A stretch of 64,000 bases of DNA from Patellaria atrata CBS 101060. Lineage: Eukaryota. This document shows, one piece after another, positions 16,454-40,511 of this stretch. The translations under genes were made by a program, and so were the position numbers. Below the pieces are notes generated by a model that had not been told where the DNA came from, searched no databases, and was given only the letters and a program-made list of their open reading frames with translations. The DNA lies in the NCBI GenBank assembly GCA_010093705.1, contig MU006101.1, positions 471,614 through 535,613 of the forward strand, in the 5' to 3' direction. Positions within the stretch are counted from its first letter, which is position 1, and every line of letters begins with the position of its first letter.

Positions 16454-19400
16454 TCAAGATGGCTTGGTAGTCTTCCCTCTACCTCTGCCTCTACTTGAGC
16501 CAGTTCTTGCTCCCTTTCTCGCCTTCTTAGGAGGCTCGTAGTCATCTCCATCCTCTGAAGACCCCTCTGCGTCCGCCGATGATACCGCGTCTTTCTTCGC
16601 TCTCTTACCTCTACTGACCCTCGTGGGCTGATCATACCCCATAACGATCTCCTCATCCAGCTTCCCACTCTCCCCATCCCTAACCCTCCGTTCCCCTGAC
16701 CCATTATCTCTTCTCACTGCACTCTCCCTAATCCTCCCCAACGCATTCTCCAACCTCTTACTCTTCCCTACCTCCCTCTTCCTCGGCGCAAACGCGCCCG
16801 CCCCCACAGTCCCACCTACGAAACTGGTGATATTACTCTGCGTGCCCTCGCGCTCCCGCCTATTCATATCTCTAATGACAGGCACGAGGACCTCATCCGT
16901 GCGCTCCCTGCTCCAACCCACGGAAGCCATAAGGAAGCGCCTCAGGGCGTCGAGGTCAGGGACGCCCCACCGGAACGGCTGCGCGTCGTCGTCGACCGCG
17001 GGGCGCAGATAAGCGTCCTCGACGCGGGGGTCGGGAAACGCGGTCGGGAGGAAGAGCTTGGTGGCGTTAGCCTTGCGGAACTTGCGACGAAAGGGGATGG
17101 GCTGGTCGTCTGCCTTGGGGCGACGGTTGGCCTGGACGTCGGCCCACCAGTCCCTGAACGCGGTGAGGTGGCCGAACTCGGATATTATTTCGAGGGCGGT
17201 GACGGGGCCGACGCCAGGGAGTCCTTCGGTGTAGTCTGAGCCGAGGAGTTGGGCGAGGGCGATGAGTTTAGAGCGTGTCAGGCCGAAGTCCTTCTCGAGG
17301 TCGGACGAGAGGTAGCATTCGACGAATTTGGCTTGGTTGAACATGTTCTTGTAGACTCTGGTGCCGCCGAAGAGGAAGGTGTCGCTGTCGTCGGTGACGA
17401 TGCCGTCGACGAGGCCGAGGCGGACGAGCTCGGCGCATTGCGCTTCTGCTTCCATGGGCGCCGTGATGTAGGGGAGCCCGAAGAGGGAAAGGAGGTGTTG
17501 GCATTCTTGGATCATGGAGGTTGTTACTTCATCTGCGTCGCGGCGGTCGCGCTTTTGTTGTGACAGCAGCACTTTGAGGTCGCGATTGTATTGTTCGGTG
17601 GATGTGGTGCTGGAGAGGGGGACGCGGTTATTGAGTTGGGAGGTGAAGCGTTCGTGTTCTTCGAATTCCTGGGCGAGTTGCTGGAGGATGGTGTCTTCTT
17701 CCGGGTCGGAGTCGAAGTATTCGGCTTCGGCTTCGACGTCAAGATCGAGAGGAAGGTTATCGTCGGCGAGGCCTGATGCGGGAATAACTGTGATGTCCAT
17801 CTCATCGACAGGCCGGAGGGATTCTTCTTCAGGTTCGGTAGGTTCGGTAGTGTTTGTTGGTTCCTTAATTAGAACGTCTTCAAACTCGTCTTCCTGTTCA
17901 GGAGATGGTGAGCTAATTTGTGCATTGTCTGGAGTAGCTATCTTATCAACCGTCGGACGGGACGTTTGATGTATCTCTTCCTGATCACTTTGTTCCCACT
18001 CCAAGGGTTCACCATCTGATTCTTCCAAGATGTTAGTTCGAGGAGATGGCAATCCTTCCTTTTCTTTAGCTGCTAGTGCTACTGAGGGCATTGGCTCATT
18101 TTGGGTTCTATTATCAGGAAGTGTCTCTGTTGAGGGAGGTGGCTCTGCCCTAACCTTATCCGCAATATCTCCCATTCTCAATTCGGGCTCATGAACAATG
18201 ACGTCCTCCATTTCCGCATATTCGTTCTTTTCGTCATCGTCATCGTCGGATTCAATAGCAATGACTTCCTTCTCCTTTTGTGATGATAAGTCCACATCAA
18301 TGGCCTCCTGAGTATCTTGAATTCGCGATTTCGGCCGTTCCTGGAACTGGAACAATTCCTCATCCGTCTTTCGATCCTTTCGGCGATCTTCAGCTTCGAT
18401 GGCCTTCTGAGCATTAAGATCTTCCTCGATATTACCTTTGAACCAAGGGGGAAGTGGTACCGCCTGTTTCTTTTCCTTCCTGTCTGTCTCTTTCTCGAAG
18501 CCGCCCGCAGTATTCTCTGATAACTTTTGCATTTTCTTTTTTCCGAGAAGCGAGCTTCCCAGATCAAGTTTCTCGAACGGAAGAGGACCATCAAATGGGC
18601 TAGCTTTCACTTGTTCTGTCACAGCAGCTTCAGACCGAGGCGGCGAGGGTTGCTTTACAGCTGGTATCCTGGGCGGGGGCAAAGACTTCCGTTTCGACTT
18701 CCTCGATTCTGCAAGCGCTGCTTGCAAATTCATATCATCGTCCTCACTATCCTCTTCTATGAATGTACGAGGCATTACCTTGGTAGCCCTGGCATTCGCA
18801 GCATGAGCTATAGACATGCCCTTTCCCTTAAAGAAAGGTTTGGGTTCTTCTGCTTTCTTCTGGTTTTGTTGAAAGACTTCCATGAAGTCGTCATGTTCGT
18901 CTTCACTCCCGCCTCGTTCTTCCTCTAGCGACATGGCAATTGCGCGTTGTAAGTCGGGGTCGTCCTCGTCTCGAAGTTGGATCGTTGATTGGTCTTCGAG
19001 ATCATCGTGGGTGTTCATGTCTACGTTTTCCCAGTCTTCTTCATCTTCATCCTCTGCTACGAAGAGGGAGTCTGGTTGGGGCACATTGCGCTTCGGTCGC
19101 TGCATATGATTCTTGGCCTGAATCTGGCCGGTATTACGTGGTGGATGAATGTTATTTCTACTGCTTCTAGAGGAAGGTTTCATCAAGCTTTTGGGTAGTC
19201 TATTTAGTCCTTCGATCGGAACGTCTTCGAATTCTTCGTCTTCCCATTCTTGATCCTCTTCTTGATTGGGCTGAGGGACCGGCTTGTCCAAATCTATAGG
19301 TTTATTTCTTTCGCCTTCATCCTTATTAACCACGACACCCAATGCCCAGCCACCTTCTACGCCGTCATTCTTGACTAGAACGTATTCGCGGTTGCGCGAG

Positions 19401-20317
19401 CTGGCCACCCTACCAGTAGATACGCCTGGTAAACTATCGTTCATGCCATTGATATTCATGAGACGCTGCGTTAACTCGTTCCTTTCCCTTACACGCTCGA
19501 TTTGGAATCTAGAAAACGCCATGCGATCTGGGAACATCGTGTCCAACTGCTCCTTTGACAAGCCCATCCTTAATCTACTCCTTAACCTTGCCGCGTTGAG
19601 GATATTATAGCGATCGCTGTCCGGTAGACTCATAAAGAACGGACTATCAAAGTCGATCTTCGAAAAGTCGTAGACATTGATATCCTCCCCCCGATCAAAC
19701 TGTCTCGCATAACGTTCCAACTCTTCTAAACTCATAATCCGGGGATCATTCTGTCCACCCATCTCCGAAATCGACACATCCAGATCAGGCAAATGATACG
19801 CATCACTCTTCCTAAACGTGCGATTCCTCTTCCGCTCTTCTTCCGTCATAAGCACCTCAGACGCGTACACCAAATTCTCCGGTATAGGTTCTTCCTCCCG
19901 GACATGGTGATTCGTGCCCCTTGCCCTCGCTTCCTCCTCCTTCCTCTTCCTCTCCTCCTCTTCCGCCGCCCTCTGCATCTGTAACGCCAACAGCTTCCCC
20001 GCCGTCCTCACCGCATCCTCGCGTCTGCCCTCTCTCCTCGCCTTCCTCCCACTGATCGTCTGTCGTTTCAATGCCGGCGCCCCTCCGTCAAACACAAACA
20101 CCGGCTTTATGCCGATGAAGAGGAGCTTGCAGATTCGACGGAAGAAACCGACGACGTGCGAGTTGCGCAATGCGTTGCCCTCTTTGTCCCGCACCGCTTT
20201 CAGGAATTGATAGATCCAGATTGAGGCGTCGACGGCGAGGCGTTTTTTGTTCAGCGTTTCGATCTTGATAGGGCGGGCGGAGGGTTGGAGGACGGTCCAG
20301 AGGCCGGTGACACCCAT
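16454..20317 (-). CDS. RAD2: DNA excision repair endonuclease Rad2/XPG (Rad13), intronless, 1287 aa
   Basis: XPG-N: MGVTGLW...LAVDASIWIYQFLKAVRD...VFVFDG. XPG-I: APMEAEAQCAEL...TDDSDTFLFGG, GSDYTEGLPGVGPVTA. PIP box QSNITSFV. UIM-like segments DLQRAIAMSLEE and NLQAALAESRK. Confidence 0.97.
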   Translation of the reverse strand: MGVTGLWTVLQPSARPIKIETLNKKRLAVDASIWIYQFLKAVRDKEGNALRNSHVVGFFRRICKLLFIGIKPVFVFDGGAPALKRQTISGRKARREGRREDAVRTAGKLLALQMQRAAEEEERKRKEEEARARGTNHHVREEEPIPENLVYASEVLMTEEERKRNRTFRKSDAYHLPDLDVSISEMGGQNDPRIMSLEELERYARQFDRGEDINVYDFSKIDFDSPFFMSLPDSDRYNILNAARLRSRLRMGLSKEQLDTMFPDRMAFSRFQIERVRERNELTQRLMNINGMNDSLPGVSTGRVASSRNREYVLVKNDGVEGGWALGVVVNKDEGERNKPIDLDKPVPQPNQEEDQEWEDEEFEDVPIEGLNRLPKSLMKPSSRSSRNNIHPPRNTGQIQAKNHMQRPKRNVPQPDSLFVAEDEDEEDWENVDMNTHDDLEDQSTIQLRDEDDPDLQRAIAMSLEEERGGSEDEHDDFMEVFQQNQKKAEEPKPFFKGKGMSIAHAANARATKVMPRTFIEEDSEDDDMNLQAALAESRKSKRKSLPPPRIPAVKQPSPPRSEAAVTEQVKASPFDGPLPFEKLDLGSSLLGKKKMQKLSENTAGGFEKETDRKEKKQAVPLPPWFKGNIEEDLNAQKAIEAEDRRKDRKTDEELFQFQERPKSRIQDTQEAIDVDLSSQKEKEVIAIESDDDDDEKNEYAEMEDVIVHEPELRMGDIADKVRAEPPPSTETLPDNRTQNEPMPSVALAAKEKEGLPSPRTNILEESDGEPLEWEQSDQEEIHQTSRPTVDKIATPDNAQISSPSPEQEDEFEDVLIKEPTNTTEPTEPEEESLRPVDEMDITVIPASGLADDNLPLDLDVEAEAEYFDSDPEEDTILQQLAQEFEEHERFTSQLNNRVPLSSTTSTEQYNRDLKVLLSQQKRDRRDADEVTTSMIQECQHLLSLFGLPYITAPMEAEAQCAELVRLGLVDGIVTDDSDTFLFGGTRVYKNMFNQAKFVECYLSSDLEKDFGLTRSKLIALAQLLGSDYTEGLPGVGPVTALEIISEFGHLTAFRDWWADVQANRRPKADDQPIPFRRKFRKANATKLFLPTAFPDPRVEDAYLRPAVDDDAQPFRWGVPDLDALRRFLMASVGWSRERTDEVLVPVIRDMNRREREGTQSNITSFVGGTVGAGAFAPRKREVGKSKRLENALGRIRESAVRRDNGSGERRVRDGESGKLDEEIVMGYDQPTRVSRGKRAKKDAVSSADAEGSSEDGDDYEPPKKARKGARTGSSRGRGRGKTTKPS

Positions 20318-22231
20318 GACGAGAAGGGCATGTGGGCGATATCAGCGCTTGTTTCGGATGTCTCGTATAGGGCTTTAAAACTCACGTCCGGAGATTGCGC
20401 GTTAGAATTGAAGTGGCGTGCGCGTTGATGATATTGTGTATGACAGACAGGATGCGACGGGAAGTTTGTTGCCTGATGACGCACAAGGGAAGCGAGACGT
20501 GTGGCGAGCAACGCGAAATCACCTGCGCACATCTTCAGACATGATTTCATGAAAGTTTTGATTCAGTATCTAACCCTCTATTTTTCATCAAGTTAAAGAC
20601 AATTCGACTTCCAAATATCTTTACCATCAGGTTCAGTTCCACCAGATGCAAGTTGAAGTTAAGTGTTTTGACCGCAAATTCAGGGCTCGATTGTTTAAGT
20701 ATCTTCATACCAGTCATACTGTAATGTGTATCTTGTAGTAATTTCAAAATCCTATGTTTCTTCTAGAGAAGAAATTATTTTCCTATATCAAAGTCACCAC
20801 CCCTTCGAAATACCTTCCAACAACCATCTCCAACCTACCTACGGATATAATCCCCATTTCAGGGGTTATACCCATACGTCCCCCCATCGACGATATCTTC
20901 ATTTCTCTTGCCCATTCCTTGATTTCTGCATCAAAATCCCGTATCTCCCTCCCATATGTACCATATGACCCTCTTCCATCAAACCAGTATCAAACCATCC
21001 CACGCCCTCATCCCACCTCATCCTAGCCCAACCCCTTGAAGTTAGCGATACCGGCTAAAATGGGTTCTGAACTAAGTCAAGAAACACCAACAAGTACCGT
21101 AACAGCGCAGAATACCGACAACCAGGTCATCCTCCCCCTCCCCTCCTTCACATGCCCACCGTAGTTCTACAGTGACGGCAAATTCTCCGATCTTCGTCTC
21201 ACAGACCATTCCTCCATCATTCAAAAAAAGCCCATGACGATATCCAGCAGTTTTCCACTTTCCATCCTCAAAAATCACCCAAGAAAACCGCGCCGCACCG
21301 GCTAAACCCGCAACGTATCTAACAAACCCAGGTACTTATCACACCCCCTCCTCTCTATCCGAGGGGGTCTCGACCTCACCTCCTGCACCGCCGGAGGGCC
21401 ATAACCGGCGGTGGGGACGTCCTTACGGCCCGATCAGGCCAACTGTGTGCCCAAAGAAGCATTCACCGTGTTTTCCCAGTTCTTGACTTACAGCCGCCAC
21501 AGCCGTGATGGGTGGGGATGTGCTTGGTACGGTATAAGGTACTTAAACTTGACACCCTCTTTACATCGCACATCGTACAGTATCTGGCAACCTATCCCAT
21601 CCGCCGCATCTGCAACGTGCTCCAAAACCCGGTTTAGAAAACACCACCGATACCTATATTACACCTGTCCATACACTATGTGTTTTATTCCCTTCTATAC
21701 CGCCCCGTAGTCCTCGTACCTCATTTCCCAGTCAACCAACCCAACATTTCACCCGCCCTACCCGACACAACTCCCGATCCCTTACTGCAAACATCCCACC
21801 CCTCCCCCAACACATATGCCCCTTGAAAATTGAAGCAAGTGAGGGTCCCTGAAGTGCACAGTAAGGTAAGGTAGCGGAGTGGTTGTTCATCCATAAAACC
21901 GGGTCCAAACCACCTCATCTGATACACATAGTGGCACAAACACCCACGACACCTTAGGGTACCCACCAGCACTTCACCAAGCCCTCAAACCACGGTTAAA
22001 ACAGGGCACATAAACCCTACAGGGGTAAGTCCCTAGGCGGTGAAGCCCGGCTTCTGTCCTCACTACTTCTCAGGAAGGGTGTGATGTGATGTGATGGAGG
22101 GGTTCGGGTTCGAGAGACTAAGAGTAGTGAGGGGCTTGATTTAAGCTACCTTACTTTTTAGCTTGGGATTGAGGAAACGGAACGTCGGACGGAGGGTGGG
22201 GACGGGCATTCGGGTCATGGGGCTGGATGTA

Positions 22232-22285
22232 TGTAGTGTGGTGTAGTGTGGTGTAGTGTGGTGTAGTGTAGTGTAGTGTAGTGTA
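22232..22285. repeat. Microsatellite (GTGTA/GTGTG)n
   Basis: tgtagtgtggtgtagtgtggtgtagtgtggtgtagtgtagtgtagtgtagtgta. Confidence 0.9.
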
Positions 22286-25200
22286 CATATCATATCATCT
22301 CTAGTAGAGGTACGGGTTGCGAAGAATGTGGTGGACGTGGAGGGGGTGGACGTCATTTTGGACACCAATGCTCAGTAGCAAGCTATCTACTATGTACAAT
22401 GGATGGTGTGGGCTTTTCATGTTTTCATGTTTGGAATGATTGAGTTACTGGTGGTGCGAAATGGGAGGCGCCATTTCTCTCAAAAACTACCGTACCGTGG
22501 CTTTGGATTCTCGGAGCGGCCGCTTTGAGTGCTGCTATACTAATTGTAGTAGTGCTGCTCGGTTGTACGGGACACAGCTCATGATATCGGTACCTTCGCT
22601 ATTTGGCTACTATCACTACTGCCATCGCCGGGGCCTGGAGACTTTCGATTTGAGATGGGAATGGATCCATATATTCACCTGCAGCGGTGAGGGGTAGAAA
22701 TGCATCCATTATAGATCTGAGATGGAAATGAGAGTTATGGGAGAACGAAGGTAAAAAGGAAGAAGAAGCCGCGGATCTTCTTCGCGATAGGCTCGGAACC
22801 GACACAAAGAGAAGAAAAGGATACAGATGGAAGTTCACCTACATGGTGTGCAAGTTCCGAGTATCTTCTCTATTGTACGGAGGTCAACGTTCTTGCACTT
22901 CTATTTCCATTATCTTCTCAGCCATCTGTATATTCCAGTTGTATGAGTAGCCGACTTGACTGAATCTTCTCGCCGAAGTTGTGATCATTAATCGGCATAC
23001 CGAAGCGGGTGCGGTACGATGCGGAGCCGGCCGTTAAAGCTGGTGGGCTAGGTTTGGTCAGAACCAGCAGAGAGCTTGACGGACGGAGTGGGGGTGAAGA
23101 CAAAACAAAGTGGCGTGGTGCTCTCCGTAAGTCCATCTATCCCATTGACCCCGTTGACCGGTGAGAGTTTGATGTACAGTATAGAGGGGCAGGGCATCGA
23201 AACCTGACAGTGCCACCTTGATCCGGGGGCCGAATTGGCGTTTCCTCTCTCCTGTCGTGTCACCGGAAAGTCCAACGGCCAGGAGTGTAGGCCTATCGTT
23301 AGGATGAGGTGGTTTCTTGAAGGTTTTGAAGAGGGGGTAAGCAGTGCAGGCCTTGCGGGGATGTGTGGGGAAGGATTCTCGCAGGGATGTTCAGAAGCTT
23401 GAATCCTTTCGCATCCGGTATTCGCGCTTACTACGGTACCGTTCGGAGGGAAAGGAAACCGGAGAACCTTGTTGTAAGGTGTTGTGAGAGCAATTGAACA
23501 TCTTACTGGATCTACTTTGCGTCGTCAGCGTAGTCAGGTATGGAGTACGGCGGACGTTGAAGCTTTCAGGAACCCATGGTTTGTGAACGTTTCGGTCTTA
23601 TAGTGGCCATCTAGCGTGAGGTGTTTCTTGAGACATAGGGTTGTTATTCGTACATACAGATTATGTACCGTGATTCATGCATATGTATGTGTGGCTCGCA
23701 GGAGTACGTGTCCAGGAGTGGCCTTACATGATGTATGGAAGGAGTTTATGGAGACTTCTGTTCCTGTTAGAGTTACTTTATTTGGTCAAGCTAGTTGAAT
23801 TCTGAAGTAACGTAGTGTTAGCATTGAACGGGTTCCTACATTATGTATCCATACCGTGGTATACCAATCTCCATATTCCTCGATCGAACGATAATGACTT
23901 CATCCCGAAGCGGTTACTGACGAAACTTTTCATAGTATAGTTGGAATTAGGTGGGCTTTGGATGCCTAAATTTCTAAAAACACGCGTTCGCAGGTTTTGC
24001 TAAAACAGGATCAGTTTGAACGACAGTTGAAACGATACGACCGAATGTTACGAAAGAATTGAGCAGGATTGAGCGACTATATTGTACTGTAAAGTCACTC
24101 TCGCAGTGAGCAGATTTCATCCTTTTCCGTAACGATCGCTAATAGTCAGAGACGGCCATAGGAAGAAGATAGATCCATTATACTCCGTAAAAGAGGGCTC
24201 GTTCAGCTGAGAGTCGCTAAGATACTCCACGAACGTATCGTCCAATGTGGTATGATTATAGGATGGTGTTTCCCCACTCCCATAGTCCAAGATTTTACAC
24301 CTCGGATGAAGCATAACAAAAGATCTCCCAGGTCAGATCAGTCTTAGTAGAAGAATCTGGACATAGATATGTAGAACTACTCAAGAATCTGAGTGAATTC
24401 TGAAGAAGTGAAGCGTGCAGTGTGGTGGTCACAAAGCTATCAATGCAGCTGTTCCACTTAACCGTTCCGATCTCCCTCAGAGGATGTCAATACCAGATCT
24501 GCCATTACTCCGAGATGGAACCGTATGAGACCTTTAGCTGATGCGAGATGAGACCACAGGCCCGTAGTTGACCCTTAAGAAACAATGGTATGGTGCAATG
24601 CAAGGCTGCCTGAGCGGCAAGTGGTTCTTCCTGCGCTGACACATAACTATAGACTATGTCTTGCATGCTATAAGCGATGTGACAGTCCTTATAGCCGAAT
24701 GAACTACTGTGCCGTACAGTATCATCCGAATAGCTTTGTGTTCTTAGTGTGAGGCTAAGTCTCTTGATAATGCATTTTGGTACCGCTATAGGGACGCTCG
24801 CTCTCGATCCAAGATTCGAAGATCTCCAGCAATACGAAGGTCATTAGACCCGGGATTCATTTCGCGGCATCGAGGCGATCTCGTATGAGAGATGCGTAAG
24901 AGAAAGTTAAAAGAAATCTAAAGAGTTAGGGACGGATAGGGGACGGCCGTGGCTTTGGGTGTTTACGGCTTGCAGCTTGGCTGAATATACTTCAGCCATC
25001 TTTATGTTCAAGACCACTTCCAGTAGTGAGTATGATGCTGTCACCGCTTACCTCCTTCCTCATATAGAATGTGGTTGAACTCCGGGCCACCAAGTACAGT
25101 ACAAGTCAAAAGGAATCAGGTTGAACTATAACGTTGATTAGACAATTGCTACGATGATATCCATGGTTCCCTGTTAAATAGGTAGGTAGAAGATATGAAA

Positions 25201-26777
25201 TCTGATGGTGCTCTTAAAATTGGGAATAAACTTTCCACTTCAGACTCCAATTGACGGACCGTCATGTACGGGCCGAGGGAAGAAGCTTCGTACTTCCATA
25301 AACGGCCCGTTCCAGAATTGAAATTTTAATAATAGTACGTAGATCACTGACGGGAATTTGCCGCAATCTGCGAAGTCAAAGAGTCGTCGCTTGCTGAGCT
25401 GTAACATGACTAGTGTTAGAGTTGCTAGTAGTGGACAAGTAAAACGGTAGGTAGCCTCACAGAAGTGTTTCTGACAATGCATGACGTTGTGAACTTGATC
25501 TTTAGCCCCAGAACTACCGTTCTCATGTCGCCGCTAAGAAGGCACGTGGGGTATACTCCTTAAATGGCGGTGGAGGATTCGAAAAGTAATTCGATAACAA
25601 GTATATCGATCTGCAATTTTTTTGCTATTATTCTGCGGCAGAAGCGTCAAGAGGGGAAAAAATACTACATAAGGTTTATACGAATCCTGAGGTAAGATCA
25701 AGGCAATCACACTTCACAATAATGGTCAATATATAGAGATAATAGGTCCGATGGATCAAATGTCGCGTATAAACATTACTAGGGTATATAATAATGGAAA
25801 AGTGTGACAAAAATAGCAGACCATAAACGAGGTCGCTGGGGTATATCCCACATGGTGTAGAAACCCGTCTCCCAAGAACTCCAAGACAGACCGTGAGCGA
25901 TGTCGCGAAGACCCATGCTCATGTAACCCCCTTCCAATGTCGCGCCACTGATGCAAATCATACAAAAACTAGTAGGGATGAGGGTGTAAAGTGTTTGGTG
26001 TGAAGAAGGTTCATGCATCAAATACTGTATGAGTGAATCGTGGCGCGGCGATGAAGGGGAAAACGCTGAAAATTAAAAGACGTGTAACTACTGAATCCAC
26101 GAAAACCGAACCAGCGGCCGCAGAAAAGTATGTGAGACAAGTATCGGGAGAGAGGATGTAGAAGATGTTGATAAGGTAGAGTAAGATATCATGGTCGGCG
26201 ATATGTGATGTTGAACGTGAGACGCGAAGTGGTCGAGATGATGTTCGGGAGTTCGGGTTCGTAGTATGGTAATGCGGTGTGTAATATATTCAGGTGAGAT
26301 GTGTCGATGAATTGCTGCAAGAACTTCCAGGAATGCGACCCGTGACCGGTGACGAAACGTGGATTACGAGACAGATGGCCAATGAGAAGTGGGCAAGATC
26401 GATCTCACATGCAATGCAATGCAATGCACAGAAGAAGCGCGCAATGAGACGAACGTCTTCTTTAATTTCCAGGGAGCACTTCCTCATTCAGATTGATTGG
26501 CGAGTCATTGGTCTTCGTGATAGGTGCGGCGTTGTCATACAAGTCTGAAGACAAGGCTCCAGGTCCTGAAGGATTTGAAGTGTCATGGTTGTTCTGACAG
26601 ATGCGGAGAACCGAGAGAATCACCCGCCAAGGGTACGTATATAGTAGTTATATGTCGAATTTAGGTTGGCGAAGTCCGAAAGCAATTGTAGCATAGAGAA
26701 ATATGCCGGTGGTCGATTGTCTGATATCGATGGAGTACTACTGAAATGGAGTGATGAAGTCGACGTGGCGTACTCAT

Positions 26778-26855
26778 CTATTTGCTAGGGACCGGAGGAA
26801 GAGGTCTACTCGGGGGAGGACCGGGGCAAGGAGGAAAGCTCGTGAGTGCAGGCAT
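26778..26855 (-). CDS. Candidate 25-aa proline-rich microprotein MPALTSFPPCPGPPPSRPLPPVPSK
   Basis: First ATG downstream of a TATA-like CATAAATA (27107-27114, minus strand), after a ~250-nt ATG-free C/A/T-rich leader. Start context CCACAATGC; 11/25 residues are Pro; contains RPLPPVP (class I SH3 ligand). Confidence 0.6.
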   Translation of the reverse strand: MPALTSFPPCPGPPPSRPLPPVPSK

Positions 26856-29800
26856 TGTGGTTTGTCTTGTGTGGGATGGTATCTTGAAAGATATCCGATT
26901 ACTGATGCAAAGCAACAGTGATAATAGTCCTAAACAGAGGGAAGCTGAAGTTGCTGTGTGAAAGTTGATTGAGTATAAAGCTCTAGCGAAGTAAATGCCA
27001 ATTGATTCTTTCTAGTTTCGGCTGATAGGAGGACAATTGTTCAGACTGTTTGATGCTGAGGGAGAAGAAACAAAAAAGGTTGTCAAGTGGTGGGGGGAAT
27101 GGGTGGTATTTATGGTATGGGCCAAAGGGGGAAGGCTATACAAGCACAAAGTACACAGTCACAGCTCTACTTTACCCTGGTCCAAGTCATGGTGTAATAA
27201 TAAAATCAATCGGCTAGGGTTATAGGTATTTGCCCAGGAGTCGTGGCCTTTCTGTTCGATGATGATGAGCCTGATGGGTGTCATTTTGGTCAAAGCTCAA
27301 CAGCGGTGAGCTGAAGCGGTTCCGAAGGTAGAAAGGCTCAGGGAAGTCTTGCTGGGAATTGATGGCCCTTGATGAGCGAGCCTTGGGGCTTGGCTTGCAT
27401 CTGGTGGGCATGACAAGGCTGAAGGAATAGGAGTGGCACCGAGTGGGTGCGGAGGGAGGGCATTCTGAACCGTGCATCAGCCAAATTCACCATTCTTGAC
27501 CTTCTTGTTCATCACGCATCGCTCATCCCGGTAATATTTCAGGAAGAAACACGGAGGCGAGCACTCGTTCGGCCTTGTTTCATCGTCCTCGTGATGTACA
27601 TCCTGGCAGAACTGGCGCACACAAATTATTGCCATGAACAAAAAATCCCCCTCAGTATTTCCTTATCCATCACCTTGATCGACCGATTGAGCAACAGACG
27701 GGACTCACGGGAGATACGGTACCTGTCTATCTGAACTCAGCAAGCAAGAAGCCTGGTATTTTGCTTTATCAGCTTGACAAGACCGCATCATTGATAGTCA
27801 GCAGTAGTAAGGAGCGTTTCAGCAACATGGAATAATCCGTAAAACTTAGTTCTAAGGAGATATCGTCAGGCCATTATTTTTTTCCAGATAGACGATACTG
27901 CCGAAGCTATGTTAAAGCCGCGATGAGAGAAAAAGGGTGGGGAGCCTAAGGAGGGATAGTAAGCGAAATTTTCTCATAAACCGTACCTTAAGCCAAGCGT
28001 CATATCAGACAGGAACAGGCACATCAAAAAGCAGAAGGCACGATCTCCTGTCTCAAAAAGATGCATCATGAGGTGGTATGAAAGGTAAGGTATGGTAGGT
28101 TGGTGTGAGAGGCGGTGGAACCAAAGCCCAAGCCCAAGCCCGAGCCACACCCAAAAAACTTCCATCCAGGCACCGAAAAGCTCATTCAGCAGCAGGTGCA
28201 GCACACAGGCCACTCCACTCTTTCTAGCTGCCTTCTAGTCAAATTAATTGTGACGCAACCCTCATTTCTTCTCTCCTTTATCGAAGAGACAACCTGACTC
28301 TTTCAAGCTGCAAATTTCAATACAGTTTTCGGCAGTAATCAAAAACAGAAAGCTGTGGGTGGGCCCAGATGAGTGCGCTCAGATATCGCCTTCTCATCCC
28401 GCCTTCTACTTCGCTTCTCCCGTCGTTCTAAAAGCAGACACGAGCTGATTGCTACTTTTGGTGATAAGGAAGCGGAAAAGTTGGCAGTAAGTGGGATAGA
28501 TGCATGCCGTAACTTGCTGACGCTGTTGCACAATGTGCCGGTTCGACCGGAAGCATCGCAATCAAAAGAATGTCAGATGGCATTCTTGGTAGGATGAAGC
28601 GGAGGCCTACGTACTTCTTTTGTGCCGATGATGGGTGATACAGCCTGTGAAGGTGCAGTATCGCCAGCCCGTTTTCCCTATCAGTAACATCGTATCCCGT
28701 CCCGCTTTCAATTGTTCCTTTTGGGGTCTGAAGGCTGAAGATGTTGGGCAGTACAGTTATACCGATAAGTGTTATGGTATGCATCTTTCTTGTTCTCCAG
28801 TTCTCGAGTCCGCCGTTTCCCGGTTGTTTGACCAACCAGATCCTGCGTTCTACTACTGTACGGAAATGCGTCAGATTCTGCCACTTGTTACCGTTTGCAC
28901 CGACAATCAGTTTTGACAGCTTTAGCCGTCTACCTAGCATCAACACTGCATATGTCGGTGGAGCCTTTCTCATTTTACTTCTGTGATGCCGTCTTTATCT
29001 CTTTGCGATCGAAGATTTGCTACTGTCAAGCTCTTTTACAGACTGCATACGGAGTAGAGGCCAAGGCAGCGGCAATTGGTGGCCAGATGACAAGATCTAT
29101 CTTGATCCCAAGGAAAAGGTTCGATTTTTCTCAAATTACCATGCCTGCTGCACGCCTTCTCCTGGTCCTTGTCCTCGTCCTTGTCCAAATGTCCAAGCAA
29201 AGTCCATCTGTATAACGCTCTAGCCGCAGACTTGAACTTGCCATCCATGCGAACCCGAGGGAGCGAAACTACACACGTGGAAGCAAGGATGCGAAAAGGA
29301 GATCTGACGCCACAAGAAGTGCGATTTTCCTCACCGCCTTGAGCTGCCATCATCAGTACTTCAGGGTGATCTGTACTACTGTACCCGTATGCCGGAGTTT
29401 CGACCTATGCAGCATATCCCTTTTACATGCAGCACATTGATTGAAGCGTCTTCATTCCATCGTCCAAATGGGTTAAGGGACATGAACGTACATGCAGATA
29501 TAATTTCAACTCCGGTGCATGGAAGGCCGGCTCGTCAGTGCCGGTACGGTATTTCTTTCGGTTTTTTTTTTTTTCGTTTTTCGAAGCCCACATGACTTCT
29601 GTACCTGCAGTAGCAAAGTCTGGGCTGACGGGGGATCAGCACAGCCAAAGCGGCAGATTTTCAGGGGGTTGAGAAAGAAAATTCCTGAGACCTGAAACAT
29701 TCGCAAAATTCGTCAGCTGTGGTTGAGGTTTCAGACTTTCCTTCACCGCACCCTCATACCTCGGTCGAAGCACCGATGATTTTCCACCGAATTTTCATTT

Positions 29801-31194
29801 ATTCAGAAGCTCTCTCTTTTGCCTGGAAAGGACTTTCAATTTTAAAATTTTATTCAAGAGGCAAAAGGTTCTTCGTATCCCGGCTGTCGCGACGATAAAG
29901 GTAATGGCTCATAAGTTTAGTGGCGTTGCATTAATAACCCTGAAGAGTTCGAATCGTCGGACAGTTCGCCTACGAGGTTGCATATCGTGCGTCGACTCTT
30001 TCTGCAAGTCATAGTTACTCCGCATAATGCCCCTGCCAGTTTGTCGTACAGAAGCTCATCAAAGTCCTTCAAATCCCAAATTGATTTCTTTCTAAAAGTC
30101 CGCGATGCAAAGCATCAAATATACTTTGCATGTGAAACCATCCTCTTTGATTTTTTGCTGCAAGATTGCTAAGCTACATGTCGCACAACCCTCTTCGAAG
30201 ATGGGAATTTGCCATTTTTACTTTTTCTTTCAAAGCAGCCCAAGTGCGTAACCTTCTGCTTTCAGTTTCTCCCTTGCATGCCAACTGATCTCTCTAACCT
30301 TTTGCTGCTTGCCCAATTTTCATTATCTTTGCTTCTACCGGGGCTATTTGATTCTAGATCTGTCCGTGCAGGAGCCACCGGCAACCGAGCCTTCCGTCAT
30401 CTTCGTTCAGCTTGTCAGTTCCGAACTTGAGTTCAAGCTTGTCCGTGGCTGGTTGCATTCCTTCGGACCGTTTTGTGGTGGATGAACTGCCCGTCACGCG
30501 TTCGGAGAATCCGACGGACTGTGAAGCCACGGCGTACCTTTAAGATTGCGACTCTTCTCTTCGGCAAGAAGTGCCACGAGAGCTGTCTGCCTCTCCTGGA
30601 CCGTGCCGCCACGTGGATAGGTCGGGTCCTGATGAGTAGTGTTAAATCCTTAGATTTCATCGTGGCTTGACCAACCTGCTGGATGCCGGGGTACTCAGTA
30701 CTGTACACTGTGCAAGATGGTCCTTGTGATCGGCTTTGGGGTTTGGGGAATTTGGAGGTACTGTTCTTGATCTCCACAGAGCTGCAACATCTCTCGTGAT
30801 CTTGATACCACAAGATTCGATATGAGTGACCCTAGATGTCGCCATGAGCAGCGCACTTGGCCGATTGGGGATGGTAACACGCTGGTTTTCGTACGACGTG
30901 AGAAAATGATGATCCGGAAACAGTAAAGTCGAAAATGTTTATTTCTGCAAACTCGATGCGCGCCAATAGCAAAAAAGGTAGGTACGCTCGTAGGAGTAAT
31001 CGCATCCCATGCAATTTCCTAATGTGCACCATCGTACATGGATGGGAGTACAAATGATACCGTAGCCATGCGAATGAGGAATGCGCGCCAATCATTGTTT
31101 TCTTTTTTTTTTGTTTCGGCAAGGTAACTCAGGTTCAGTCAGATCCAGAGGAACGCCAGTTCTGTAAGGTATGATGGCATACCTATCCAGCTCA

Positions 31195-32101
31195 TCATCC
31201 ATCATCCTCATCATCGTCTCCCTGATCTTGCGCAGCCTGCGTCGACACCCAATTCTCTAACATCTGCTGCGAGGATTCCGGCGCCTTCCCACTCGCAGCA
31301 GTACTTTTCTGCCCTCTCCTCTTGACAACCAGACACAGAATCCTGCCGTAGATGCTGAAGCCATCGTACGACGTATTGAGCGCGAGTTTCTTCTTCTCCT
31401 CGCCCCTTTCGACATCTCCATCCCCATCTCCGTCTTGTGCGTGCTTCTTCCGTTTGTGACGTCGTGATCCGTGTGTCTGATCCTCCACATCCGAACCGGT
31501 GGACGAGTCGACAAAAAGCCCATCATCCTCATCCCCAGTATCTCTTCGCGGACGCTTTCCCCGTGAGGATCCAACCTCAGGTATATCCCCCAGCGCAACC
31601 TCAGCCCCCTCACCCTCATCCTCCTCCCTCACCACCACCGTCTCATCAGTTATCTCCACCGGCACATCCCCGGTTCCCCTCGTCAACCACCCGGTCAACT
31701 TCCCCGCATTACCCCTCATCCTCTCCCCCTTCTCGCGGAAAATCTTCTGCTTCGTCAACAGCGCATGCCCCGCCGAGCGCTCGGTCAGGAAAACAGAGAC
31801 CTCGAAATCATCTGTGGGGCAAGTTGTCAGTCGGGTTTTCCGCCAGATGACACCCCAACTCACCGCCAACAACGACATCCCTAACCCTCCCCCTTCCCTT
31901 CCCCTTCCCCTTCCCAACCGCGCGCTCGTTCTCCTCCCGCAGTTTCGGCAACACGAGTCCCCGCACCGCCTGCACGATCCGCGGCAAAGCCTCGGCGCCG
32001 GGCCGTAGGAGCCATGTCAACTGGGAGGGGTCGTCGAGGTAGATGCGCGTTTCGAGGACGGTGTGTTTGGTTAGGCGGAGGTAGCGGCGGGTTGGTGGCA
32101 T
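31195..32101 (-). CDS. Conserved fungal hypothetical protein, 2 exons
   Basis: MPPTRRYLRLTKHTVLETRIYLDDP...VLPKLREENER is joined by intron 31812-31863 (GTGAGT...CTGAC...CAG) to DDFEVSVFL...YDGFSIYGRILCLVVKRRG...MLENWVSTQA. Confidence 0.8.
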
Positions 32102-32764
32102 GTGTGTGGTTTTGGGGTTGAGGGGGGCTTTTTTTTTTGGGTGGGAAGGGGGATTAAAGGCAGGGAGGCGGTAAGGGCAGGGAGGACGTGGGGGTGTATA
32201 AGGTAAGATAGACCGTGGTGGAGAGAATCCGTGGGGTATAGTATCGTGAGGTGGGTGGTCAAGGGTTGGAGGGGGAAAAAAAGGGCATGGTGATGATAAC
32301 CTGAGGATTTGTGCTGATTTTAGGGAGCTTGTTGTAGCTACCTATTGTCGGGTGTGGTGGTCTAAGGGTGGAACCTAGGGCTTGGCGGGCGGGATTCCGC
32401 CATCTCTACCCAAACGTCAATCCAACTGGACAAACGGTGCTACGCATAAGGGAATATTCGGGGAATAATGCATCGGTGGTAGGATACGGTACGAGAAGTA
32501 AAGCTCGGTTCTAGTCAACTTGAAACTGATCCCCTCCGTACGGACTTTTGACATCGTACTGTAATCCTACAAACCTTCTAATGGGTATATGGTAAAAGCA
32601 TAGCATACGGCGATGGACCTCACTTTAAGATAGCAATCGAAATCGTACCAAAGTAGATTTGCAAATATAGCATTTTTGGGCTAACTACCTGCCTACCCTC
32701 ACCTTTTTAAAGTCCATGATACTATACAAATCCATCCGCCAATGACGGGAAATTCACGCCTCCT

Positions 32765-34256
32765 TCATTTGAGGCCTAACAAGGCCTTCCTCTTGCGCTC
32801 AGTTTCCTGAGCTAATCGACCCGCTGCGAGCACCACTTCAGGGAGCTGACCCGGATCCCGATGGCTGTAGTGGCAGCCATACCCATTTGAACAGCCGTCG
32901 GCGTACAAAAAGTACGCCAGACACGGCTCTTGAGGGGCCGGAGCCCTATTCCTCCCGGCGTACGGCACCGAAGCCGTAGCGGCCGGAGCCACTCGTTTTG
33001 GCCCGGGGAGGGCGGCTTGAGCCGTTGGGGAACGGCCCCGTTTCCTTCCTGCTATACAAGACGTCAGTGATGCTAATAATTGTAGATGTGAGCAAACGTA
33101 CCTCGACCGTCAAGAGCCCAAACGCGGATGGTTGGCGGATCAGGACAGATAGGCAGCTGTATAGATTAGCTTGACGGTACAATAATGCATCCGTATGAAT
33201 AACGAACCTTCATTCCGTCGTAATGGTTGATAAATCGAACCATATTCCTTTGGTGGAAGAATGTCAGCTCGGCTACTTTGCTACCCTCGATGGTATGAAC
33301 GATGACGATGGGATCTGCAACGGCCTTCCGTACAATGAATGTAGAGCGGATTTTATGTACGTCGAAGCTTGATGGTAGTCCAGATAACCTTACACGATAC
33401 TCTCCATTCACGGTATTCAATGAACGGTCGAACACTTCTCTAAATCCCCATCGATTGTTAATTTTTTCAAGATCACGGATAATTGGATGAGTGGCTGTGT
33501 CCGAGCGTGTGGGTCCTTGATAACGCTGTTCTCTAGACCTGTTCTGTCGTACCACCAGGGCGCGATTCAAATTCTGTGGTGGTGCTTTAGTTGGTGAGGA
33601 TGATTGATGAGTGGAATGTGGCTGAGAAGCAAGTAAAGCCCGTATTGGCTTCAGGAAAGGATTGGTGCCGACACTGGGGACCTCTTTGCGAGGTTGCGGA
33701 GCTGCTAGGGTGGATGTTGACGACATCTGATGAGATGTTGCTTGCCTTATCCATGGGCCACTCTGGAGATGAGAAGATAGATGCCGTGGAGTGGCGTGAA
33801 TTGGCAAAATCTGACCCAATCTGGGCTCTGGGCCATCTGTTAGCTCGCTGCTGGGAGGGCTGGATGGCCCAACTGCAGCCTCTTCAGCAGGCTGGGAATC
33901 GGTGGTGATTTTGACTATAGGTTTAAGCTGATACCCATCGATCTATAAGATAGAAGAGACAGTTAGCGAATGAGCTTTCTATTGTATACATACCTTATAT
34001 ACAGGCATCCGTTTGATCCATCTCATTCGGTGTCTTGGTGACTCACTGTGGTTTCTCTGACGCGTAAAATAAGCTCCGCGGCTTGGGCGGCAATCCAAGT
34101 GTTCACTTCTGCCTTGCGGGGAGCGTTATGTTGACCTGGAGGGATGACTGCAACGTCAACAACACTCCAGTCAACGGAAGGGAAAACTTTCTCCAACTGC
34201 CCCAGGGAGAAGCCCGGAGGCAGATTGAAGATAGTCACCGTGTGCATTGAACGCAT
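32765..34256 (-). CDS. Putative RNA-binding protein: two RRM-like domains plus C-terminal CCCH zinc finger, 4 exons
   Basis: RNP2-like TVTIFNLP and VRLSGLP; RNP1-like AELTF. Manual splicing keeps frame into C-x9-C-x5-C-x3-H (CLAYFLYADGCSNGYGCHYSH). Confidence 0.65.
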
Positions 34257-36143: not shown

Positions 36144-38368
36144 TTACGTAGCCTTCGGCACCTCTGGTTTCGCTGGGAGCACTCTTGCATTATCTCTCGG
36201 CCTGCTCGCACCTCTCTCGACTCTATAATGGCCTCTCCCGCTTTGTAACGTTCCTGGTTTCAGTAGATTTTTCTTCTTCTTCGGCGGGACATCGCACTTC
36301 CGGTACCACGGATTGCAGTAGCCGGTCTTGCATGCTCTTTGCATTCGGCACTCGTCTCCTATGCAACCTTCCGTACACGGTTTGCAGGTGTAGTTAGAGC
36401 ACTCCTCATCCAAGTTACAGTCAGTAGCTTTCATGCAAGGGCGAGGAGCGCAATTATCCATGGTACGTGGATCACACGTGAGGAACATGATAGGAGTGTT
36501 GGGACATGTGTGTTCCGTTGTACAGAATTGGTGAGGCGAGTCTTTGGGTAAAGTCAGTTTGGTCTTCTTACAGATCCCCTTTACGCATTTAAGTCCGGGT
36601 TGGCAGAAAGCGTTTCTATTGCACATCATGTCCTCACAACCAAGGACACACTGCTGGCAGACGTTATTCTTGCATATAAGACCCTCATGGCAATCATCGT
36701 TAGCGGAACATAGATGGTTTTCCCGGCCTAAGATTGTCTGGCCCTCGATTGGAAGGTAAGGGTTCGGATGCACATATTTGTAGACCGTGTTATTTCTTTG
36801 GTGCTTCGTGAAAGGAGATTGCTTCAAGTATTTATTCCAATCCCACTCGCTTGGTGCAGAATTGGCCTGTCCTATCAGGTCACCGAGTCGCTTCATCTCT
36901 GTGGAGTCGTGAACGTCGATTTCAACATCGCGCACATCTGGATTTTGGCTCGTGCTTGCGAATAACTGAGGAGAGATTAGCTTGGATACGCCCAGGATTT
37001 GAAAGACGTACCCAAGGTACACCACGGAGATTGATTGCGTTCGCTTGCTCCCAGATATCTGCGAATTTGCCGCTGATTCCCTTTTCACCAATGATGTAGG
37101 TAAGCGCTTCAACTAGAATGAGCTTAGTTCCTCTCGCCTTGAATGAAGTCTGACTCTGGGGACTGAGTAGGTTTGCCTTCCTAATAATTAGACGTTTTCA
37201 CTATTTCACGTGAGATTGACTCACCCAAAGTGTTCCAGCGGGCGTTTCACTCGTCGAAGGCCAGTATCTTAATCAGAGTTAGACCATTCACGGTAGGGGG
37301 TTTGCAAGATTGATGACTTACCCGTGAATACCAATAACATCAATGGCATCGCATTCTAAGAGCTGCTGAGGGAAGTTTTCATGACCACCAGGGCTGACGG
37401 GACTCGATATACCACCTGTGATGACCGCAATATTGCTTTCACCAAGGCCAGTGGAAATCTTGAGGTGCTCTGCAATATCACAAAACCAAGACATACCCAC
37501 AGGGATTGGCCATACACCTTGGAAAGGTTCGTTCTGCAAATCCACTCCCTAGAGAATATTAAAATGAGACTCTCTTTCACCGGAATAGTGGAGAATCCTT
37601 AGGATACACTGTACGTACCAGGATAGTTTCATTTAAAGTTCTCCATTTACGACCATTGAAGTTTTTCGACTCATATCCAAAAAACATAATAGTTAGACGA
37701 AGTCTATACCACTCTCGGACTATGTAGTGGTTAGTCAACGACAACATAGAGTGTCTTGGTTGATGTACTTGTCTCATTGGTGTAAAAGTCCAACCATGGT
37801 TCCCCGACAGTTTGACAGTAGACGTCGCATTTTGCGTTATTCGTTCCACGAAGTGCATGAACATCATGCGGCGCAATTATGACCTTCGTTTTCCCTGGGA
37901 GAAGTTAGACTAATTCATGGAACATTGACCATCGATATGACATACCTTTACTGATCCGGTGAATGGCTGCTAGGGTATCGTCAAAGCGATCTAGAGATAC
38001 CTGATCGAAGGTATGTAGGTAAAATTCGGGCTACCTTCGATTAGTATGGCCATCATACTATCAGATCTTTATGCAAACCCACATCAGGATATTTTTCATT
38101 TCCAGTTACTTCATGTTGAAAAAGCACTATTAGTAGTGATGGTTGACCGCCAGACATGTCAGGACTAACTCATTAATCGTATTACGCTGACATTTGCATT
38201 CACAAGCTCTGTAATGGTAGCATCGCGTTCTGTAGGTTCTAGAAACGGTAGACTGAAGTGATTTACACCTGCGAATGAATGATGGGGCGCAGACTTTGAA
38301 AGTGCATGGATTTTAAGCGTAAAACTTAAAATTGAAATGATAATAAAAAAAACGGAATTTGAAAACAT
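36144..38368 (-). CDS. Secreted GH5-like (clan A TIM-barrel) protein with C-terminal cysteine-rich repeats, multi-exon
   Basis: Signal peptide MFSNSVFFIIISILSFTLKIHA. Motifs SFAGVN, VIRL, KVIIAPHD, GVDLQNEPF (acid/base Glu), DVIGIHGY and KLILVEAL. About 7 short introns splice in frame. The tail is CxxxxxCxxGLxCxxxxC repeats. Confidence 0.8.
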
Positions 38369-38938: not shown

Positions 38939-40511
38939 ATGGTTCTAGAGCTCCATATATGGGGTCCAGCATTCGGCCTCCCCTCCATTGACCCCGAATG
39001 CACCGCTACAGTTGCATACCTCAAACACTGTCTTCCAGAGGAACAATGGATACTTATAGCAGACCACGATCCTTCCGTATCTCCAAATAGTAAGACTCAG
39101 ATAGGATACAGAGAAGGAGAAGGAGAAATAGTCTGACGTATTTGCTCTTCTAGGAGAATTCCCCGCCCTCCTCCACAATTCCACCTGGATAGCTGGCTTC
39201 CACACCATAACTCGATACCTGCGCCAGCAGCTATATCGTGACATAGACGCAAGACTAAGCTCTCAACAGCGTGCAGACTCTATTGCGTAGGTTACAAAAT
39301 GTCGTGTCAAATTGGATCAATGTTACTAAGAGGTTCTATATAGTTTTTCGACCCTTCTTAGTCACTCCGCTCTTCCTCTCCTATCCCTATCCCTCTATAC
39401 CTCCTTCCAGAACTACTACCATATCACTCGACCTGCATTCACCTCAATACTGCCATGGCACGCCAACTATTCTGTACCTCCAGCTCGCCGTGAAGTTGCA
39501 AAAGCTGTGACTCAGCACTTTGGTTTCTCAGGCCTAGATATTGACGACGTTCACGAGTCTACTCTCGCTGGTGGAAACACTAGTATTAGCGGGAGTTATG
39601 AATCAGCGAAAGCAGTGGCGGGTATACCAACCGGTAACGGTACTAATTCTAGACCGAATGTGTTACCATTAGGATTCAATAAATCCATCAAAAAAATTCT
39701 AAACAAGCCGGAGTATGCTGCAAGGTTCCGCCTCGATGCACTCACAAAAGAGTGCCTACAACCCTTGGATGATCTACTGGGAGAGAAAAGTTACCTCCTC
39801 ACAGATGGTGCCAAGGGACCTTCCAGTCTAGATTGTCTAGCTTTTGGATACCTTAGCCTAATGCTCTACCCTGACTTCCCTCAGGCATGGCTCAGAGAAG
39901 GCTTCGATAAATATCCTCGCCTCCAAGACTACGTCCACAGAATGCGAGATGAACTCGTTGGCGGCAACACTGTAGTTGCAGATGTCATGGCTCTACAACA
40001 CTCCACTTCTCCAGAATCTCACAACCTGAACCTCCCATGGCACCCACGGGTACCTGAACACCCAATAGGCGTCGCTCAAAACGTCGCCACTTCCATCCTT
40101 TCTGCCCTTCCGCTGACTTCTCACTTCGCTCGACCCTCTATCATTCCTGGCATTGATGTTCCCGAAACCTCAACTGACGCTATGCGGGCCAACACTCCTT
40201 CCAGCCCTCTCCTTACCCCTTTCCTTGCACTCTCTACAATTCTGCTCGCTTTTGTTAGCAGCATATCATACCTTTCTCTCAACAGAGATCCCCGTTCTGA
40301 AGATGACTACGTCTTCTTCTCCAATACAGAAGCAGCGCGGCGAAATCGCGCGCAGAGCTTTGGCGAGGCTGGTGGATTCATGGCTGCGTTGGGAAATCAG
40401 ATGAGAGTGAATTCGGGGTTGGTTGGGGACCAGGGGCGAGAACAGGAGCGAGTAGGTGGAGCCCCGGTTGTGGAGGTTGATGTTGAGGTTAGGGAGAAGC
40501 CGGGACTGTAG
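38939..40511 (+). CDS. SAM37: Mitochondrial outer-membrane SAM complex subunit Sam37/metaxin
   Basis: Tom37/metaxin N-terminus MVLELHIWGPAFGLPSIDPECTATVAYL; GST-C-like PSSLDCLAFGYLSLML; C-terminal TM. Two introns splice in frame. Confidence 0.88.

Follow-up and report, generated by a model that had tools for sequence, protein, structure and literature searches.

The window analysed here is a stretch of 64,000 nucleotides (nt) from the genome of the fungus Patellaria atrata CBS 101060 (contig MU006101.1, positions 471,614–535,613). It contains a gene-poor interval of 11 kb, hereafter the desert, which is bounded on one side by a gene for an XPG/Rad2 nuclease and on the other by a conserved gene designated gene Y. 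Inside the desert lies a small open reading frame (sORF) whose product is dominated by proline, and this element is the subject of the present analysis. The explanation that best accounts for the observations, with a probability of roughly 0.6, is that the sORF is an unannotated, stand-alone protein-coding gene of 24–36 codons that specifies a proline-rich microprotein, which would act by occupying or bridging an SH3-type domain. The features of the locus are collected in Table 1.

The sORF opens in the start context ACAAACCACAATG, the letters directly before it on the minus strand being ...CCACAATG, and 11 of the 25 residues of its product are prolines. An earlier note on this DNA had described the TATA-like box, the leader devoid of ATG, the start context and the reading frame, and its letters and coordinates are all correct on re-reading. 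Among the 106 ORFs of at least 25 codons that begin with ATG between 20342 and 31194 (the desert ORFs), the sORF is the richest in proline (0.44, followed by 0.22 for the runner-up), and the class I or class II consensus of SH3 ligands occurs in three of the set. The GC skew is +0.318 over 26001–27000 and the strand that carries the sORF is C-rich; a pyrimidine tract readily yields Pro, Ser and Leu in one of its three frames. Taken from the window alone, the sORF is weak evidence and could be a by-product of the C-rich strand.

Relatives were reached by using gene Y as a synteny anchor, which led to 13 metagenomic fungal loci (given below by L numbers), several of them on long contigs, in which the gene Y protein is 39–51% identical. 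When the desert is compared with these loci by blastn, a single site stands out besides gene Y: window 26779–26836 matches L001, L004 and L005 at 74–83% identity, in each case ∼3 kb downstream of gene Y. Orthologues were located by blastn, by a six-frame pattern search and by tblastn without composition correction, the latter two placing the sORF in seven of the 13 loci (L001, L003, L004, L005, L006, L009 and L012). It is always found on the strand of gene Y and 1648–3273 nt downstream of it, the distance in the window being 4361 nt. Among the six loci without the sORF, five retain only 331–1172 nt past gene Y and L007 retains 2439 nt. The peptides sort into five lineages by sequence (window, L001/L003, L004/L005, L006/L012 and L009), L004 and L005 being ∼97% identical to each other. 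When, as a control, each of the 106 desert ORFs is run by tblastn against the 13 loci, the sORF alone matches seven loci at E ≤ 1e-8; three others match at E ≤ 0.01, namely the antisense overlap of the sORF and two marginal cases (E 0.002–0.006). A tblastx comparison of 20001–31194 with the same loci likewise finds the sORF alone conserved.

The manner in which the orthologues differ is that of a coding sequence. Over the 17-codon core, variable columns number 3, 4 and 15 out of 17 at codon positions 1, 2 and 3, respectively (binomial P ∼9e-4, a rough figure as the sequences are related). In all ten pairs among the five lineages, the ratio of nonsynonymous to synonymous differences (pN/pS) is 0–0.26 with pS of 0.28–0.75, which is close to saturation. 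The alternation of two conserved nucleotides and a variable one is confined to the core in the nucleotide alignment, and the flanks are unalignable apart from short blocks. On the opposite strand the variable sites would be first codon positions, which indicates that selection acts on the minus-strand frame. A true stop codon closes the frame in all eight sequences, TAA, TAG and TGA all being used, and it follows the same residue in seven of them, the L009 peptide being two codons longer. Beyond the stop, the in-frame sequence shows no conservation, and the stop has no GT ahead of it, which makes this the true C-terminus. At the other end, the ACAATG context recurs at the first ATG in five of the eight sequences. 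These patterns make it very probable that the sORF is a real, translated ORF under selection, and it has been conserved since before the split of the sampled lineages, whose gene Y proteins are only 39–51% identical. The earlier note had proposed looking in relatives for synteny, for conservation of the peptide with its start and stop and for a bias towards synonymous substitution, all of which are present. A periodicity scan of three close pairs for hidden coding sequence near the sORF brought out nothing beyond gene Y, and is blind to an ORF of 75 nt. As a positive control gene Y was recovered in 4 of 47 scanning windows for L001/L003 and 10 of 40 for L006/L012, all inside gene Y; for L004/L005, a pair ∼97% identical, the scan is powerless (0 of 67).

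Table 1. Features of the sORF locus. Coordinates refer to the window unless a locus is named; arrows follow the minus strand from 5' to 3'. UTR, untranslated region; aa, amino acids.
Feature	Coordinates	Strand	Sequence or variants	Basis or remark
sORF, 25 codons + TAG	26855→26778	minus	MPALTSFPPCPGPPPSRPLPPVPSK	direct sequence reading
Conserved core of sORF	26837→26787	minus	FPPCPGPPPSRPLPPVP	orthologue comparison, codon-position pattern
Core position 8			T/S/N	22 sequences
Core position 9			R 17, K 2, C 1, G 2	22 sequences
Core position 13			P 16, A 5, Q 1	22 sequences
Core position 14			V 12, I 10	22 sequences
Core position 17			K 16, R 1, others 5	22 sequences
Orthologue peptide, L001			MAALTYDESNMASQNLPPCPGPPPTRPLPPVPSK	
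Orthologue peptide, L003			MAALTYDESNMASQNLPPCPGPPPTRPLPPVPSK with two changes	
Orthologue peptide, L004 and L005			MMSTANLPPCPGPPPTRPLPPVPTK	
Orthologue peptide, L006 and L012			MPGIKYPPCPGPPPTKPLPPIPKK	
Orthologue peptide, L009			MAILCNELNMSTQNLPPCPGPPPTRPLPQIPCQTK	
TATA-like box	27114→27107	minus	CATAAATA	sequence and alignment A5
Candidate start-region block	27074→27067	minus	TTTGTTTC	∼40 nt downstream of TATA-like box; alignment A5
Putative 5' UTR, G-poor, ATG-free leader	26856–27066	minus		ATG-free run reaches 27189
Upstream block, ∼80 nt	27594→27516	minus		putative upstream activating region; blastn and alignment A3
Invariant element of upstream block	27594→27587	minus	TCACGAGG	within upstream block
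TGAAAC element	27582→27577	minus	TGAAAC	within upstream block
Decamer	26724–26733	minus	CCATCGATAT	∼45 nt past stop, presumed 3' UTR; alignment A1, four sequences
XPG/Rad2 nuclease gene, intron-less	16457–20317	minus		flanks desert on one side; Pfam
Gene Y, conserved, acidic C-terminus	31195–32341	minus		flanks desert on other side
Desert ORF, 158 aa	23048–23524	minus		one of the two longest
Desert ORF, 180 aa	28452–28994	minus		one of the two longest
Tandem array, four overlapping 20-nt copies	22232–22281		10-nt unit TGTAGTGTGG	inside gene-poor stretch
Ile-tRNA synthetase, mitochondrial type	41547–44799	minus		tRNA-synt_1, Anticodon_1, zf-FPG_IleRS
Ile-tRNA synthetase, mitochondrial type, L012	L012 13714–17073			tRNA-synt_1, Anticodon_1, zf-FPG_IleRS

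A wider family was recovered with a profile of the eight peptides, searched against 1,835,955,588 representative proteins at E ≤ 1e-3; this search took in proteins of 22–41 aa as well. There are 15 matches (best 1.2e-8), each lying 0–3 residues from the C-terminus of its protein, and 14 of them carry the Cys-containing core. Two of these 14 are predicted as proteins of 35 and 36 aa; the remaining twelve are models of 103–432 aa, three of which start with V, and ahead of the core they consist of low-complexity strings unrelated to one another. The long models look like the product of a prokaryotic gene caller working on the stop-poor leader, and the 14 matches like the sORF itself, read through from junk upstream. 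Among ten matches whose sources were examined, nine are of the sORF type and come from ENA, JGI/IMG or Logan assemblies, where they are unnamed or called 'hypothetical protein'; none of the nine derives from an annotated NCBI genome. A scan of metagenome contigs with the 77-aa stop-to-stop frame of the sORF gave 593 pattern matches, none of which was confirmed.

The resulting family set comprises 22 sequences, some identical to one another. PPCPG, PLP and the last P are invariant throughout, and the core across the family reads PPCPGPPP-[TS]-[RK]-PLP-[PAQ]-[VI]-P-x-K-stop, preceded by a variable N-terminus (M-x5-6, or about ten extra residues). Two length classes can be told apart, one of 24–26 aa and one of 34–36 aa with an added MA-x-L... 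head, the beginning of which is resembled by the MPALTSF of the window peptide. Pfam returns no family at E ≤ 10 for the window peptide, the L001 peptide or the sequences P0004 and P0007; PDB sequences give no match to the peptide at E ≤ 10, and the protein Atlas gives no usable one. The core string and five of its sub-strings led to no matching paper in the literature searched, which does not extend to subscription-only literature, and a word search (small ORF, fungi, proline-rich, SH3) found no such peptide among the papers listed.

The remaining profile match, P0005, was left out of the family set. It is a 108-aa protein of Elsinoe fawcettii (KAF4549943.1; Dothideomycetes), annotated as a hypothetical protein and the sole NCBI entry among the sources examined. 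Residues ∼31–108 hold QLPP[AT]PGPPP[TS]R[SP]LPP twice, one copy being C-terminal. The spacing of prolines, Gly and Arg is the same as in the sORF core, whereas the length, an apparent signal peptide (by eye), the KR between the copies and the presence of Ala or Thr in place of Cys set the two apart. From its sequence P0005 looks like a repeat precursor processed by Kex2, and it may be related to the sORF core, as a secreted form, or have converged on it as another proline-rich peptide.

Short elements around the sORF are consistent with a transcription unit of its own. The TATA-like box that the earlier note named is kept in position in four further aligned loci: the same column block of alignment A5 reads CATAAAGA in L001, CATAAGTA in L003, CATAAATA in L004 and CATAAATG in L009, the counterparts in L006 and L012 being TATATAAT and CATAAAGT. 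Further down, TTTGTTTC(A/T)TC is shared by the window, L001, L003, L004 and L009; it would make a candidate transcription start region, and its distance from the TATA-like box appears to be that expected between a TATA box and a start region. No ATG occurs in the window from 27114 down to 26856 and the nearest one upstream is at 27190, which amounts to an ATG-free run of 335 nt. Runs of 194–335 nt directly precede the sORF start in all eight sequences, and ATG-to-ATG gaps that long make up only 0.6–4.4% in the same eight, although the length of these leaders is partly due to their G-poor composition (12–19% G). With no AUG upstream in the leader, the start of the sORF is the first AUG. The sORF thus appears to have a TATA-type promoter of its own and a leader free of upstream AUGs.

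By blastn the upstream block is matched in L004, L009 and L001 at corresponding sites ahead of the sORF, and it lies at −590 to −470 in L001, L003, L004, L005 and L009. Its invariant heart in the six sequences of alignment A3 is TCACGAGG-N-CG-[A/G]TGAAAC. As a block it is absent from L006 and L012, which have TGAAAC alone at −333 and −318, respectively. On the other side of the sORF, the window, L001, L003 and L009 share CATCGAT, located +102 to +118 relative to the core. A conserved non-coding block is also seen 540–700 nt downstream of the sORF in three relatives (L001 5760–5990, L003 13990–14220 and L009 6900–7110); it contains CACGCTGG, CTTGTAAT, a T-run and GCATCAGTTGGCGC, shows indels that are not multiples of three, and might represent either the 3' terminus of the sORF transcript or the promoter that follows. 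No such block was found in the window. A 38-codon ORF (26661–26777, minus strand) has its ATG directly after the TAG of the sORF and in the same frame (K-TAG-ATG). Its single tblastn match is marginal (L009, 41% over 29 aa, E 0.006) and is probably due to the conserved CCATCGATAT block; in the other loci the frame beyond the sORF shows no conservation.

The surroundings of the sORF are poor in other recognizable features. The best named relatives of the XPG/Rad2 protein, among those listed, are 54–62% identical, the top one (62%) being from Rhizodiscina lignyota, a member of the Dothideomycetes according to a taxonomy look-up. By this measure the window seems to derive from a Dothideomycete that has no close sequenced relative in the database used. 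Gene Y has no match in Pfam or in the protein Atlas. The two longest desert ORFs have no Pfam match, no match in the related loci and codon-usage scores near zero (+0.02 per codon for the 158-aa and −0.03 for the 180-aa ORF); they are probably non-coding, the alternative being lineage-specific genes. Rfam gives nothing credible over 20000–32000, the one match, HIV-1_SL3, being sub-threshold (19.4 bits against a gathering score of 33), and a tRNA search of the whole window finds none. Repeats within the desert amount to one 10-nt tandem array and one weak pair, on which grounds a transposon relic was rejected as the nature of this interval. The earlier note had taken large non-coding flanks as typical of a tightly regulated developmental gene, a view that is not supported: in the relatives the sORF lies 1.6–3.3 kb from its upstream neighbour, so that the 11-kb desert belongs to this genome and not to the gene. 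A comparable spread is visible beyond gene Y, where a Tom37/GST_C_6 gene is divergent to gene Y and ∼0.7–1 kb away in L001, L003, L004, L005, L007, L009 and L010; the homologue in the window (38939–40511) is ∼6.6 kb from gene Y, with two Pfam-less ORFs between them (33166–33942 and 36144–37112). Intergenic spacing is generally expanded in this genome.

An ORF of this size in front of which no other AUG is found might serve as a regulatory upstream ORF (uORF), yet the sORF is probably a gene in its own right. Cross-lineage tblastx over up to 7 kb downstream of the sORF finds nothing conserved, and since no conserved main ORF follows, as one would after a conserved-peptide uORF, the sORF is best read as a stand-alone microprotein gene. 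The downstream neighbours differ: in the window it is the XPG gene, 6.5 kb off and absent from the flanks of all 13 loci, and in L012 the Ile-tRNA synthetase gene. The latter lies directly downstream of the sORF in L012 and 15 kb away, beyond gene Y, in the window, which indicates local rearrangement. Each sequence has many ATGs after the stop, and these open ORFs of 1–80 codons.

The proposal that the stand-alone microprotein acts as an SH3-type ligand is tentative, with somewhat less than an even chance of being right. Class I ligands follow the consensus +xΦPxΦP and class II ligands ΦPxΦPx+. The [RK]PLPxΦP motif singled out in the earlier note is part of the invariant core, and its extended form [RK]PLPxΦPxK could be read in both orientations. 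Core position 9 is R or K in 19 of the 22 family sequences and position 17 is K or R in 17, and every sequence has a basic residue at one or both of these sites. A peptide so short would have no room for a fold and would be expected to form a polyproline-II helix, which might dock onto a domain of the SH3 kind or a different proline-recognition domain. Lacking any other domain, it would act by occupying or bridging its partner, as a competitive ligand or a mini-adaptor. No SH3 domain was found among the ORFs scanned.

A number of observations weigh against the favoured explanation or one of its parts. The codon-usage score of the sORF is poor relative to the window's own long genes (rank 94 of the 106 desert ORFs), which is expected of a peptide with 11 prolines but gives no support. 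With default settings, tblastn of the 25-aa peptide misses all orthologues in the 13 loci, presumably because of composition correction, as the uncorrected search recovers all copies. The basic residue at the class I position is missing in three of the 22 sequences. An SH3 core of ∼7 residues leaves the invariance of PPCPGPPP, Cys and Gly included, unexplained, and suggests a second contact or another constraint such as ribosome stalling on proline runs. P0005, if homologous, fits a secreted peptide rather than a cytosolic SH3 ligand. Finally, such total constancy of a 17-residue core in amino-acid sequence is a typical feature of ribosome arrest peptides as well.

This last point, together with a length of ∼25 codons and a position at the first AUG after an ATG-free leader, is what speaks for a sORF that acts in cis: the nascent polyproline peptide would stall ribosomes and thereby govern either an ORF further downstream or how stable the sORF's own RNA is, the free peptide being functionless. 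PPP, PPG-like and GPP runs need eIF5A for translation, and in L012 the Ile-tRNA synthetase gene starts ∼0.8 kb downstream on the same strand. This possibility is nevertheless unlikely. No downstream ORF is conserved between lineages, and the Ile-tRNA synthetase gene of the window lies elsewhere with no such sORF ahead of it. Between 7 and 12 ATGs open short ORFs within 1.2 kb in L001, L003, L004/L005, L009 and the window, and downstream ORFs of at least 120 aa in L004 are broken in its ∼97% identical counterpart L005, and vice versa. Very unlikely, in turn, is a precursor of a processed, modified or exported peptide, akin to a pheromone or to a ribosomally synthesized and post-translationally modified peptide (RiPP), in place of an intracellular domain ligand. 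Fungal peptide precursors are typically of this size, the proline run includes an invariant Cys and Gly, and P0005 contains a similar core twice with its KR and apparent signal peptide. The homology of P0005 is, however, uncertain (44 bits, with Cys replaced by A or T), and no biosynthetic genes are conserved beside the sORF, which itself lacks a signal peptide, a dibasic site ahead of the core and a CaaX box at the C-terminus. An a-factor-like lipopeptide does not fit, as all 22 sequences end in P-x-K or similar and their sole Cys is internal; neither does a Kex2 repeat or secreted RiPP, for the products, of 24–36 aa, contain a single core and have neither a hydrophobic N-terminus nor a KR ahead of that core.

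It is highly improbable that the sORF belongs to a longer spliced gene as its terminal or initial coding exon. The frame is open for 14–100 codons upstream in various loci, and the gene callers used on metagenomes gave the models of 103–432 aa that end in the peptide; the upstream in-frame parts, however, share no conserved peptide between lineages, an ATG stands 6–7 codons before the core in 21 of the 22 sequences, and the stop comes directly after the core with no GT donor before it. Searches of 5.8 billion proteins point the same way: the 77-aa stop-to-stop frame against proteins of 42–135 aa yielded three candidates and a 40-aa piece of the frame against proteins of 71–2000 aa yielded four, none of which matched. 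The earlier note had itself listed an exon of a longer gene among the findings that would overturn its proposal; in no longer protein, annotated or predicted, does the peptide occur as an exon. Strongly disfavoured, lastly, is a chance ORF or a conserved non-coding DNA or RNA element that merely happens to be open. The C-rich strand, the poor codon-usage score and the 106 comparable desert ORFs would suit it; against it stand the three-base periodicity of substitution with saturated synonymous sites, a stop position kept by three different stop codons, the placing of variable sites at first codon positions were the other strand to be read, and the fact that just one of the 106 desert ORFs is conserved in seven loci. 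The saturated synonymous differences argue equally against contamination or relatives that are copies of one another.

A more specific model for the stand-alone microprotein can be framed, although it is quite unlikely to be correct. Within the upstream block, [A/G]TGAAAC continues as TGAAACA in three sequences (window, L004 and L005) and as TGAAACG in the other three (L001, L003 and L009). In yeast and filamentous ascomycetes, Ste12 binds the element TGAAACA (PMC10789715). Together with a core resembling the Sho1-binding motif of the kinase Pbs2, which is compared below, this element would allow a factor driven by mitogen-activated protein (MAP) kinase to induce a free ligand for the SH3 scaffold of the same pathway, a conjecture built on two short motifs. 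The sORF might then encode a Ste12-controlled feedback peptide, a trans-acting Pbs2-like ligand made by filamentous ascomycetes from a separate gene, which blocks or bridges the SH3 domain in a membrane or polarity scaffold of Sho1 or Bem1 type and so tunes MAP-kinase or polarity signalling. PPCPGPPP would provide a second contact, for example in a tandem SH3 arrangement.

Genes this short are dropped by fungal annotation pipelines, and proline-rich sORFs evade both codon-usage scoring and default, composition-corrected tblastn. A product of 25 residues that has been held invariant while the neighbouring protein fell to ∼45–50% identity must do something specific. Being almost purely a docking motif, the peptide offers an unusually clean handle on proline-recognition (SH3-type) interactions in Dothideomycetes, a class with many members that live in association with plants. 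Should the peptide indeed be a free SH3 ligand, signalling or cytoskeletal wiring would be regulated by a genetically separate linear motif.

Proteins encoded by small ORFs are a known kind; to our knowledge, a microprotein that has a promoter of its own, is kept across a class and consists of little beyond a conserved docking motif of the SH3 type is undescribed. Among known systems, the arginine attenuator peptide of fungal arg-2/CPA1 is an example of a conserved-peptide uORF that acts as a ribosome arrest peptide. The sORF resembles uORFs of this type in its ∼24–25 codons, its place at the first AUG of the leader and its conservation at the amino-acid level, but these are defined by a conserved main ORF downstream, which the sORF does not have. 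With microprotein decoys it shares a tiny independent ORF missed by annotation, a presumed binding to a larger protein and the absence of a fold or catalysis of its own; decoys usually keep a folded interaction domain, whereas the sORF product is a linear proline motif only. The closest parallel in sequence is found in Pbs2 of Saccharomyces cerevisiae, whose motif VNKPLPPLPVAG binds the Sho1 SH3 domain as a class I ligand (PMC4904012; structure 2VKN). Absence of the Sho1-binding motif from a Pbs2 homologue is on record for Wallemia; the sources found do not extend this to filamentous ascomycetes, and the wider claim is not used here. The K-P-L-P-P-L-P of Pbs2 equals the [RK]-P-L-P-P-[VI]-P of the sORF core at six of seven positions, the seventh being conservative, and both fit +xΦPxΦP. 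The sORF core differs in the preceding PPCPGPPP, absent from Pbs2, and in a trailing basic residue that allows the class II orientation; and where the Pbs2 motif is a short segment of a large MAP kinase kinase, that of the sORF is nearly the whole product.

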